From Candidatus Thorarchaeota archaeon (GTDB taxonomy: Archaea > Asgardarchaeota > Thorarchaeia > Thorarchaeales > Thorarchaeaceae): 32,000 bases of DNA. The position numbers were made by a program, and so were the translations under genes. The notes below the pieces were generated by a model, which did not search any database, was not told where the DNA came from, and saw only the letters and a program-made list of their open reading frames with translations. Position 1 is the first letter of the stretch; each line of letters opens with the position of its first letter. Location: assembly GCA_008080745.1 (NCBI GenBank), contig SHMX01000001.1:270001-302000 (forward strand). Reading direction: 5' to 3'. This document shows, piece by piece, positions 28,810 to 32,000 of this stretch.

Positions 28810-30171
28810 CTATTGACCAATAATTTCGGTTCCATGAAAACCGATTGCAGGCAATACACAGCGGTTATGTACCTCAACCTCATTGGTCGATAGTATCTCT
28901 TTTTTCAAGCATTCATACATGTTGCCAACCAATAGAGCATGCTTTACTTTCGTGGTAAGTTCCCCATTCTCTATCAGTTGAGCATTTCGAATTTCATTTG
29001 AGAATCTTCCGGACATTGGGTCAACTTGAGGCCATGCAAAATGTTCAACATATATTCCTTTGTCAATACTTGAGATTAAATCATCAAATGATTTAGAACT
29101 CGCTTCAACCTCAAGATTCGTAACACTACAGGACCCGGACGATCTGAATGCACCATGAGCGTCCCGAGCATTATGTCTGGTAAGATTCCCTGTAGGTTCC
29201 ATATCTAACTGATATGCATTGTATGAGTCATAGAAATATGATTTGAGAACGCCCTTAGAAATAATCGGGGTTGATTGTCGGGGAATGCCTTCATCGTCCA
29301 CAATACCACTCATTAATCCGGTCTCTGACAAACCGTTATCCACGATGCTTAGACTCTCATGAGCTATCACATCACCAATTCTATCTTTCCAAGGACTGGA
29401 TCCGACATTTACTTGGTTTGCGGATGCAGAGAACCCTACCAAAGCGTAGATCATCTCAGAGCCTTCACTTGGAGCTAAAACGGCAACAACATCCTCCAAT
29501 TTCTTATCCATTGATTTTGCTTTTAGTACATCTATAGCTTGAGTACCAAGTTTCTTACCTATCTTTTCAAAATCAATATCGAAAAGATTTCGAGACCAAC
29601 ATCTCTGAACACCCTCCCCTACTTTATCTCCAATCTTGGACTTTGCAGTAAAGAATCCAAATACCATTGTTGACATAGAGCCCACAGAAACACCAAGAGA
29701 GTTGGATATTTCAGTTTCCAAAAGGCTAGATCGGAGAACACCATTTGGCACACTAACATTATCAGAAACCGATGATTCGACCAAGAGCATTGCCTTTTCC
29801 ACGAGGGTCTCAATACCAGCATTAGATGTAGTACGGTCACAGAACTGATCACGTTTTCCTGGGGTTTTCTTAGGTGCAGGTAGTGACTCGAATTTTTCAT
29901 CTTCACTACTGATTGATGCCATTGTTTTACCACGTTCAACTAGGTCATCTATGGTTTCTGATACCAATGTGGAGCATGTAAATCCAATACGTTTTCCTAG
30001 AATAAATTTGAGTCCGACGCCCATTTCCACTTTGTCATCCATAACTTTGGGAATGCTGTCATCAATGTAGACGCTTTTGGTAGTTGCCCTGACCATGAAT
30101 GCCTCAGCTTGGCTTGCTCCTGCTTTTTCTGCAGTTTGAATCACCCTGGAAGTAATATCACTCATATCCAT
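28810..30171 (-). CDS. pmbA: TldE/PmbA-family protein
   Basis: GASQAEAF, GVGLKFILGKRIGF, SIVDNG......VDDEG.P, II.KGVLKSY, TGN and SGRFS...G. ATG 30171 is coupled to the tldD stop and follows GGAGGTG. Confidence 0.85.
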   Translation of the reverse strand: MDMSDITSRVIQTAEKAGASQAEAFMVRATTKSVYIDDSIPKVMDDKVEMGVGLKFILGKRIGFTCSTLVSETIDDLVERGKTMASISSEDEKFESLPAPKKTPGKRDQFCDRTTSNAGIETLVEKAMLLVESSVSDNVSVPNGVLRSSLLETEISNSLGVSVGSMSTMVFGFFTAKSKIGDKVGEGVQRCWSRNLFDIDFEKIGKKLGTQAIDVLKAKSMDKKLEDVVAVLAPSEGSEMIYALVGFSASANQVNVGSSPWKDRIGDVIAHESLSIVDNGLSETGLMSGIVDDEGIPRQSTPIISKGVLKSYFYDSYNAYQLDMEPTGNLTRHNARDAHGAFRSSGSCSVTNLEVEASSKSFDDLISSIDKGIYVEHFAWPQVDPMSGRFSNEIRNAQLIENGELTTKVKHALLVGNMYECLKKEILSTNEVEVHNRCVLPAIGFHGTEIIGQ

Positions 30172-30172
30172 T

Positions 30173-30672
30173 TCAGCCACCTCCAACTATTATCTCTGCA
30201 CGCATATGTGGACCCCCACTTGAAACTGGCACCCAATCTTCTTCGCCCTTACCACAGGTACCACCTGAGAAGTCCAAGGTTTTACCTACCGCATCGACAC
30301 TTTGTAGAATATCTAGTACCTTTCCTGCTAGTGACATACCCCGAACTAACTGTGTTAGTTCGCCATTCTTAATGATATAGCCTTTCAACGCACTTGCTTG
30401 TACACCACCTCCAACGACATCCTCCATACCTGATGTGGCCTTGATTACATAGAGACCGTCTTTTGTATCCTCGATTATCTCTTCATTCTTCCAATCTCCG
30501 GAGTCAAAGAATGTATTTGTCATCCTCGCAAAGATGCGTCGGTTGTAATCTTGTGCTCTACCATTTCCAGTAGGATTCACACCCATAAGAATCGCTGATT
30601 CAAGCGTATGCATGTAGCCTGAAAACACACCATTTTCGATGATGGTTGTACGGGAAGATGGAGTACCGTTGA
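30173..30672 (-). pseudogene. tldD: 3' part of tldD metalloprotease gene, interrupted by an IS insertion
   Basis: NGTPSSRTTIIENGVFSGYMH, TGNGRAQDY....ARMTNTF and TCGKG...VPVSSGGPH match the TldD C-terminal third. Similarity stops abruptly at the element end, and there is no native start. Confidence 0.85.
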
Positions 30673-30732
30673 TTGAAAGTTGGACAAACTTAGACAGGGT
30701 CTAAGCAGTCCGTCCAGCAACGGCACTGGACG
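30673..30732 (-). ncRNA. Right-end hairpins; probable 3' part of the TnpB omegaRNA (reRNA) scaffold
   Basis: The minus strand reads CGTCCAG-8nt-CTGGACG, then GGAC..CTTAGAC-CCT-GTCTAAG...GTCC, then AACTTTCAA. The hairpins overlap the tnpB stop, as expected for IS200/IS605 right ends. The 5' boundary of the RNA cannot be set. Confidence 0.55.
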
Positions 30733-31999
30733 ATGCATCTTGTACGTGAATGATGTTTCTAGCCGCATTCACATCGGCATGAAAGTGCTCATCACATCCT
30801 GAGCAATAAAAGTACTCTCCACCTCGGGTTTCGGTGGTAGCATGAGCATCCTTGACCCGGACCCCCTTCTGTCCACACTGATGGCAGAGCTGGGAGGTAT
30901 GCCAGGGGTTGACGGTCCACACAGAATACGGACTATGACCTACCTGCTCCCGCATGTACCTGACCGTGTCGATGATCTTACCCCAGAGGTTGGAACTGAG
31001 GTTGTATGACAGGTCCTTGGACCCACCATGAGCCTGAAAGCTCCGGAGGTCCTCAAAGAAGATCTTTCGAACCCGATGCTCCTCGCATACCCAGACGGTC
31101 TCAGAGGCCACTGTTCGAGCCACCTCTCGGTCAAGACGACGAACCTTTCTCCACAGGGCATCGATGTGTCTATCCTTCTTGAGGATATGCCCAGGATAAA
31201 CCTGTCCTGACCGTTTGCGGTCCCAGTTGTTCTTCTTCCGTTTGGACTCTGAGATCAATGTGTAAGCCTGCTTTCGCAGGAGTTCTCGCTTCTGGATCAA
31301 ACGTGCAGCTCCGATGAGGCGGTCCACGAACTCTCGGCCATCCTTAGTATCTCGTTCTATCGAGATGGCCACAGGTGACCGAAGGCCTCGGTCAACTCCC
31401 GCCTTTGCGTCATAGTCTCGCTCCCCCAGAACCTCTTCAATGAGGGTATCATCGGGAGCCATGAAGGGAATCTGCAGGGTGACCCGTCGCCCATCCACAA
31501 GAATACGAGGAGGAGCACTTCGACGGGACTGACGCAATATATGTACCTGTTTCTCTAGCTCGGTTATCTGTTCCTCGTCCCGGTTCCGCCTGGCCTTCAG
31601 TCGTGCTAGGAGATGAGCTGCGTGCTGAAACTGGATGGTGTTTATGAGCTGGTGGTGCATGTCGTCAAATTTTGCTGCTCGAAATAGCAGTTGGTCTTTT
31701 CGCTGAAGGTCTGCAGTCTTCTCAGCCATCCCTCTATCATCATTCGCAGCTCGGGAGAGCCAGTTGAGAAAGCGAAAGCTCAAGGTTCGCTTTTTATACG
31801 GAGAGGCATCGTGGTCCCTTCCATCGATACCTGGGGGAAGCTTGAGATGAAGGAGAATCTCCTTGGGTCGGTCCTCATCCACGGTGAACCAGTACCCCTG
31901 CCCGATACTGTTCTCGGTTGATGCAGAGAAGTCGAGGGAATAGTTACGAAGCTGGGGGGTGGTGAAGGGATAGCCCTTCTTATCCCAGTGCTGGAGGAG
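30701..31999 (-). CDS. tnpB: TnpB/Cas12f-like RNA-guided endonuclease, N-terminus outside window
   Basis: RuvC-I AGVDRG, RuvC-II IFFEDL, Zn finger TSQLCHQC...CSGC and RuvC-III HADVNAARNI. The frame stays open for 39 codons upstream of the ORF-track GTG, to the window edge. Confidence 0.9.
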   Translation of the reverse strand, partial: LLQHWDKKGYPFTTPQLRNYSLDFSASTENSIGQGYWFTVDEDRPKEILLHLKLPPGIDGRDHDASPYKKRTLSFRFLNWLSRAANDDRGMAEKTADLQRKDQLLFRAAKFDDMHHQLINTIQFQHAAHLLARLKARRNRDEEQITELEKQVHILRQSRRSAPPRILVDGRRVTLQIPFMAPDDTLIEEVLGERDYDAKAGVDRGLRSPVAISIERDTKDGREFVDRLIGAARLIQKRELLRKQAYTLISESKRKKNNWDRKRSGQVYPGHILKKDRHIDALWRKVRRLDREVARTVASETVWVCEEHRVRKIFFEDLRSFQAHGGSKDLSYNLSSNLWGKIIDTVRYMREQVGHSPYSVWTVNPWHTSQLCHQCGQKGVRVKDAHATTETRGGEYFYCSGCDEHFHADVNAARNIIHVQDASSSAVAGRTA

Positions 32000-32000
32000 C

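Follow-up and report, generated by a model that had tools for sequence, protein, structure and literature searches.

The window that we analyzed is a stretch of 32,000 nucleotides from a Candidatus Thorarchaeota genome (G000, 3.16 Mb), spanning C1:270001-302000, so that a window position equals the contig C1 position minus 270000. Towards its end, the host gene tldD is interrupted at a GG core by an IS607-type element of 2,642 bp, which carries the gene of an unusually large TnpB and runs on past the window edge. The features are listed below, with contig coordinates for those beyond the window.

30173..30665, minus strand: 3' half of the interrupted host tldD (Pfam PF19289; intact 461-aa orthologue in the same-genus genome G001)
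30647..30664, minus strand: predicted transposon guide, made of host tldD sequence, matching the empty insertion site
30665..30730, minus strand: right-end scaffold core, 66 nt (z -4.45; covariation across 65 right ends)
30666..30700, minus strand: IS607 right end with GTCCAA-type repeats, GG core at 30666-30667
30701..32000, minus strand: 3' 432 codons of the 712-aa TnpB; gene and element continue past the window edge
30773..30886, minus strand: CxxC/CxxC zinc finger (C652-C682) and RuvC-III Asp689 (PF07282, E 3.9e-13)
31052..31054, minus strand: RuvC-II Glu596, canonical, 56 residues ahead of the zinc finger
31391..31393, minus strand: RuvC-I Asp483 in a clade-specific D-R-G motif, invariant in 34 sequences
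31514..31762, minus strand: wedge-domain insert, a helical hairpin of 83 residues (W360-A442; AlphaFold model)
C1:302744-302761, beyond the window: guide of the second scaffold
C1:302762-302829, beyond the window: second scaffold copy, 68 nt, in the first codons of tnpB
C1:302839, beyond the window: TnpB start codon
C1:302874-302897, beyond the window: promoter remnant, self-target destroyed
C1:302874-303239, beyond the window: truncated serine-recombinase gene tnpA, 121 aa
about C1:302897/302898, beyond the window: deletion junction
C1:303308-303309, beyond the window: IS607 left end with GG core

The boundaries of the element follow from the host gene. Removing the element together with one GG in silico restores the tldD reading frame, and because the GG core does so, we rejected a reading of the right end as an IS200/IS605 TCAA end. 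IS607 elements target GG (PMC6188088), and the tldD site shows a GG-core insertion without a longer target duplication. GGACA repeats are paired at the left and right ends, as the short direct repeats of this family are, and an HTH serine recombinase lies inside the left end, truncated in the window copy. The Y1 transposase or IS605-type ends of IS200/IS605 elements (IS1341 included) are absent; a serine recombinase and a GG core are found instead. The same signature recurs among related loci, in which tnpA-bearing left ends read N-GG-GT in 11/11 cases and 63/65 right ends finish in G(G/A) plus a pyrimidine. Contigs from two sequencing runs, possibly of the source samples, contain the whole locus in one piece with zero differences; neither an empty site nor a longer form was seen in these contigs, which drop rare variants. 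Rfam gave zero matches over the element, as did a sigma-70 promoter scan, a model not suited to archaea.

Comparison with relatives reveals what the window copy has lost. Five full relatives (L089, L092, L097, L098 and L099, the last cut inside tnpB by its contig end) are arranged as left end, tnpA-S, a divergent aCas1-like gene of 1,640-1,860 aa, and tnpB, and four of them (L089, L092, L097 and L099) have a full-length tnpA inside the left end. The match of the window copy's TnpA to a full relative ends after about residue 110, and the adjacent aCas1 gene, present in most relatives, is absent. The window copy is thus an internal deletion derivative of an ~8-kb element with tnpA-S, a divergent aCas1 gene and tnpB. 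With the query used, only truncated copies of tnpA, and no intact one, were found in the source assembly. The 5' half of tldD also contains an in-frame TGA (L001:5926-5928) that the G001 orthologue lacks. Together, this extra stop and the truncated-only tnpA suggest that the insertion may be old. The tldD partner, a pmbA-type gene at window positions 28810-30186, is intact.

The TnpB gene spans C1:300701-302839 and encodes 712 aa (688 aa from the second Met), of which the frame at 30701-31999 on the minus strand, still open at the window edge, shows 432 residues. From that visible part, an earlier note on the DNA alone had proposed that the protein may exceed about 550 aa; the full frame is larger still, and not the roughly 440 aa that a start just outside the window would have given. 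Several details read from the letters also held. D483, E596 and D689 (codon at window 30773-30775) and the zinc-finger cysteines C652/C655/C679/C682 are invariant in an alignment of 34 homologs, and the spacing from D483 to E596 is indeed 113 residues. In the AlphaFold model (mean pLDDT 73.6; residues 1-89 unreliable), a helical REC lobe (about 86-288) is followed by wedge strands (301-356 and 445-456) with a helical hairpin between them, and then by RuvC from residue 478, with a long two-helix segment (512-587) and the zinc finger. The helical insert that the note had estimated at about 85 residues is this two-helix hairpin, which in the window copy has a 3-residue gap relative to nearly all other aligned sequences. 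Its assignment of the visible N-terminal part to post-REC wedge sequence is borne out as well, as this part begins at residue 281, the end of REC, and AsCas12f residues 123-419 align to model residues 301-706. The protein scores above the cutoff for Pfam PF07282 and below the cutoffs of the NCBIfam TnpB and Cas12f2 models. Its split RuvC D-E-D triad, zinc finger and WED/REC fold are those of the TnpB family, and so is a scaffold with a pseudoknot that lies over the 3' end of the gene and the right end of the element.

The large size is shared by a whole group of proteins. At least 119 homologs, mostly of 680-730 aa (median 710 aa), have 50-66% identity to the window TnpB, and nearly all named homologs among those listed come from Thorarchaeota. 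Matches occur in 16/24 genomes of the same family; 16 more distant genomes yielded weak RuvC-level matches at most. In a quick RuvC tree without reference Cas12 or Fanzor rows, the clade has an SH-aLRT of 100 and sits on a long stem. These data point to an enlarged TnpB clade with a predicted intact active site, as the earlier note had proposed.

The guide RNA appears to have gone the other way. Whereas the guide scaffold is about 150 nt in ISDra2 and ISXfa1, the core at the right end of the correctly parsed relatives measures 47-71 nt (66 in the window copy; four 37-nt rows and one 81-nt row are parsing errors and were excluded), figures that describe the conserved core of a 3' scaffold that may extend further upstream. 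In nearly all loci, the right end lies about 0-40 nt past the tnpB stop codon. Two stems make up the core, hairpin 1 (30713-30730) and a second one that spans the stop codon and the TnpA-type repeats, together with a pseudoknot of 7 bp. The pseudoknot joins the 8-nt loop of the hairpin, which lies in the last codons, to the final 7 nt; among these is the base directly behind the GG, a pyrimidine in 65/65 right ends. A right-flanking base that forms part of the scaffold, and a pseudoknot too, have been described in ISXfa1 (PMC10711439).

A second scaffold of this kind, 44-74 nt long, lies at the 5' end of tnpB in 44 loci, and the pairs of its stem and pseudoknot change together. The Watson-Crick fraction of the pseudoknot is 0.87 in the 5' copies (shuffled mean 0.67, maximum 0.73) and 0.77 in the 3' copies (shuffled mean 0.70, maximum 0.73), with compensatory pairs. 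Taken by itself, the fold of the 5' scaffold is unremarkable (z-score -0.75). The source genome also contains some 12 gene-less IS607 mini-elements of about 314 bp with the same end type (e.g. C11:19491, C4:178852 and C2:251182), and a shorter type near 190 bp (C4:186181 and C4:200862). We considered the ~314-bp elements as guides for the window TnpB and rejected them; they carry a different, longer scaffold of the ordinary TnpB kind that matches another TnpB locus on C2.

These features place the clade next to, and apart from, the known IS607-family elements IS607, IS1535, ISXfa1 and CboIStron (PMC6188088, PMC10711439, 10.1101/2023.11.20.567912). Both have a MerR-HTH serine recombinase, a GG core, short direct repeats at both ends, a guide taken from the right flank, a loop-to-3'-end pseudoknot and, apparently, a right-flanking base in the scaffold. 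By contrast, TnpB measures about 710 aa in the clade and about 400 aa in the known elements, the conserved scaffold core 44-74 nt as opposed to about 150 nt, and only the clade has a 5-kb cargo gene, a second scaffold in the 5' end of tnpB, and D-R-G at RuvC-I.

Upon comparing the guides behind the 5' scaffolds with their own loci, we observed that they match the promoter of the tnpB gene that contains them. The match reaches at least 11/13 nt in 39/44 loci, as opposed to 42/1,760 swapped pairs (2.4%), although the loci are kin and these counts overstate their independence. Identity between guide and promoter is 0.87-1.0 over 12 positions and then falls to 0.67 and lower. Upstream of the hairpin, the target keeps to a fixed position at 68-83 nt and is preceded on its 5' side by T (38), G (38), G/A/T and T (39), out of 39. 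Guide and target change together across proteins that are 42-66% identical. Short guides are bound without cutting. As the promoter match extends over only about 12 nt, TnpB may bind its own promoter without cleaving it and thereby repress it. Hence, the promoter-matching guide suggests self-repression and a TG(G/A/T)T-like TAM. The base at -4 is T in 38/39 promoters and varies at insertion sites (A4, T3, G2, C2), with G at the tldD site. Since the right-end junction of the element presents C-GGT next to a perfect guide match, -4 or -5 must be where the TAM discriminates; rejection of the junction by the TAM sits badly with the variable -4 base at insertion sites.

A natural single guide directed at the nuclease's own promoter is likewise described for the tracr-L autoregulation of Cas9 (Workman et al., 10.1101/2020.05.21.102756). 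The present case differs from that account in that a transposon encodes the nuclease, a TnpB whose mRNA holds the guide unit within its first codons, and in that repression is a prediction. Some right-end guides have a different character: those of L010, L013, L014, L020, L028, L037 and L041 resemble tRNA 5' ends, a tRNA-Lys(CTT) gene lies in convergent orientation beside L013, L020, L028 and L037, and 11/14 nt of the L041 guide match a tRNA-Ile nearby. These loci may form a settled subgroup that targets tRNA alleles.

In the window copy, the 5' scaffold is perfectly paired and its guide is kept, and the best match in the promoter is 8/13, the background level. Elsewhere in the genome, this guide has zero TAM-flanked matches at 1 mismatch in 12. 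A conserved CTTGT motif stands 59 nt from the hairpin; in three close loci that share the scaffold, this distance is 69-71 nt. Loss of the self-target could reflect a 10-13-nt microdeletion behind the TAM or clipping by the large deletion in which aCas1 and the remainder of tnpA disappeared; both fit. With the target gone, the brake is predicted to be off, and since a TATA-like box and a GGAG resembling a ribosome-binding site persist, de-repressed expression is predicted.

The same losses could also mean that the window copy is a silent relic without current function. Its tnpA is truncated, aCas1 and the self-target are gone, the host tldD half has acquired a further stop, and the wedge insert bears its 3-residue gap. 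Set against this decay are the 712-codon frame, the catalytic residues, both scaffolds and both ends, all intact, together with the preserved TATA-like box and GGAG, so that we regard a relic as rather unlikely, if a serious contender.

Self-repression itself has competitors. The 5' scaffold overlaps coding sequence, its fold alone does not stand out, and in five loci, the window copy included, the guide is without a target, as might be expected if scaffold and guide were a by-product or had another role, for instance as a decoy RNA, in switching translation, or in guiding cuts that clear excised circles. We find this unlikely given the co-change of guide and target across divergent proteins, the fixed place of the target behind a conserved TG(G/A/T)T, and a match that ends at about 12 nt; moreover, all five target-less loci are without an upstream aCas1 partner. 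Self-repression of intact relatives is therefore the reading that we retain as a prediction.

What moved the element is a separate matter. Most loci with sufficient flanking sequence have a giant ORF on the strand opposite tnpB, with its start some 190-250 nt upstream of that gene; complete versions encode 1,407-1,944 aa. Pfam and an HMM search of PDB sequences left this partner unidentified, and only a fold search assigned it: its first 260 residues adopt the Cas1 catalytic fold (top 12 matches all Cas1 or casposase, Z 9.0-12.6; next 6.6), weaker matches to RecB/Cas4-type nucleases come after these (Z 6.6 or less), and a Glu, a His and an Asp are invariant in the alignment. With aCas1 in most relatives, the clade fits the aCas1-associated Asgard TnpBs (Cas1H-Asgard-1/-2; Altae-Tran et al. 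2023, PMC10691335), in which TnpB is likewise paired with a giant Cas1-like gene, and the window copy, which lacks aCas1 unlike those TnpBs, fits as a deletion derivative. The passages available from that report propose aCas1 as the transposase and are without a scaffold, TAM or second guide; here, in contrast, ends and target are of the IS607 type and tnpA-S lies inside the full elements. A downstream GTTCACTCA motif described in these passages for the published group occurs in 1/65 loci of the clade.

We favor TnpA as the mover of the element, with aCas1 as cargo, on the basis of the IS607 ends and of recurring tnpA-tnpB derivatives without aCas1 (the window copy, L054, L087 and the C16 end of the source genome). 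The converse, a casposon-like family with aCas1 as transposase and an incidental TnpA, draws on the Cas1 catalytic fold with its invariant residues and on seven or eight aCas1-TnpB loci without tnpA nearby, at which aCas1 may drive mobility. For the family at large it is improbable, as the GG core without longer duplication at tldD, tnpA inside the left end in 11 loci, and the aCas1-free derivatives all speak for TnpA. The same genome contains a 1,711-aa aCas1-type gene divergent from a 608-aa long-tailed TnpB (L081:7073-14285; C2:473072-480284), with clustered ATPase and HTH-like genes next to it; this pair probably belongs to the other aCas1-TnpB group.

The label 'Cas12f-like' in the earlier note, and the proposed use of the protein for tracing expansion from TnpB to Cas12 or Fanzor, were not supported. 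A fold search with the TnpB model returned Cas12f structures first (Z 16.5, rmsd 5.0, 272 aligned), with other Cas12, TnpB and Fanzor2 structures within a few Z units, so that the fold confirms the superfamily only. The sequence match to Cas12g is weak (E 0.007), and the score with the Cas12f/type V family HMM NF049972, 64 bits, falls short of the cutoff of 450. No fetched locus contains an exact-repeat CRISPR array; the source genome's arrays are on C3 and C13. Fanzors are recognized by DPG at RuvC-I and a glutamate six residues before the zinc finger (PMC10711439); here, D-R-G replaces DPG, residue 646, six before the finger, is Trp, and E596 is canonical. The clade's neighbors in the quick tree, weakly supported (87), are mostly proteins of 711-936 aa, and the two checked (L104:1351-3723 and L105:4001-6274) have IS607-type right ends, with tnpA directly upstream in L104. 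Window TnpB, ISDra2 TnpB (408 aa; PMC8612924), Cas12f and Fanzor2 have in common the REC-WED-RuvC-zinc finger layout and D-E-D triad, with identities of at most 22% in the structural alignments listed; the window TnpB stands apart from these in having no IS605/Y1 association, no CRISPR array and no Fanzor DPG or rearranged glutamate. Judged by locus and motifs, the window protein is a TnpB and not a Cas12f or Fanzor, and the proposal of a Cas12f- or Cas12g-like CRISPR effector or an intermediate towards Cas12 or Fanzor, despite the top Cas12f structures and the faint Cas12g match, is very improbable in view of the TnpB and Fanzor2 folds within a few Z units, the low HMM score, the lack of arrays in the fetched loci, the missing Fanzor residues (DPG and Ealt), and the IS607 association of the large neighbors checked.

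We assign a probability of roughly 0.7 to the main reading, in which a non-autonomous thorarchaeotal transposon of the IS607 family carries an enlarged TnpB with an intact active site and would work as follows. The serine recombinase TnpA, and not aCas1, would have inserted the element. TnpB would then load the small right-end RNA and cut the empty tldD allele at a G(G/A/T)T-type TAM, and repair would re-install the element, as in the cleavage-based homing of other IS607 TnpBs (10.1101/2023.11.20.567912). In intact relatives, by analogy with tracr-L, TnpB would also load the first-codon scaffold, bind its own promoter without cutting and repress itself; in the window copy, which lacks the promoter target, this brake would be released. 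The weakest step concerns the enlarged REC lobe, the wedge hairpin and the longer RuvC insert: the 300 residues that they add probably replace work done by the ~150-nt RNA of ordinary TnpBs. We lean slightly towards the fuller picture, in which RNA was traded for protein (about 710 aa with a 60-70-nt scaffold), each mRNA would yield two guides, one for cutting and homing and a 12-nt one for self-repression, the window copy would be a de-repressed mutant, and aCas1 would travel as cargo on IS607.

The pairing of aCas1 with TnpB is already known (PMC10691335). Our literature searches turned up no mention of the small, doubled hairpin-pseudoknot guide core, the self-guide or the IS607 assignment. 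If correct, our reading would describe RNA-guided autoregulation in a transposon nuclease, one that limits itself; such self-control is known for CRISPR-Cas9 and, in the literature searched, was not found for TnpB. It would revise the published idea that aCas1 moves these elements. From TnpB to Cas12, proteins have grown as guides became smaller, and the clade would be an independent instance of this trend. The nuclease would come with a short scaffold, as predicted, and with a TAM deduced from its natural targets; the window copy and L087 could serve as natural target-less controls.

Five small contigs of the assembly (C14, C15, C17, C18 and C19) have 62-65% GC, compared to 41% for the genome, and are likely contamination. 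Pieces of a second giant-TnpB IS607 element lie at the start of C5 and at the ends of C1, C11 and C16; those on C1 and C11 have identical right ends and different flanks, which suggests several unassembled copies.
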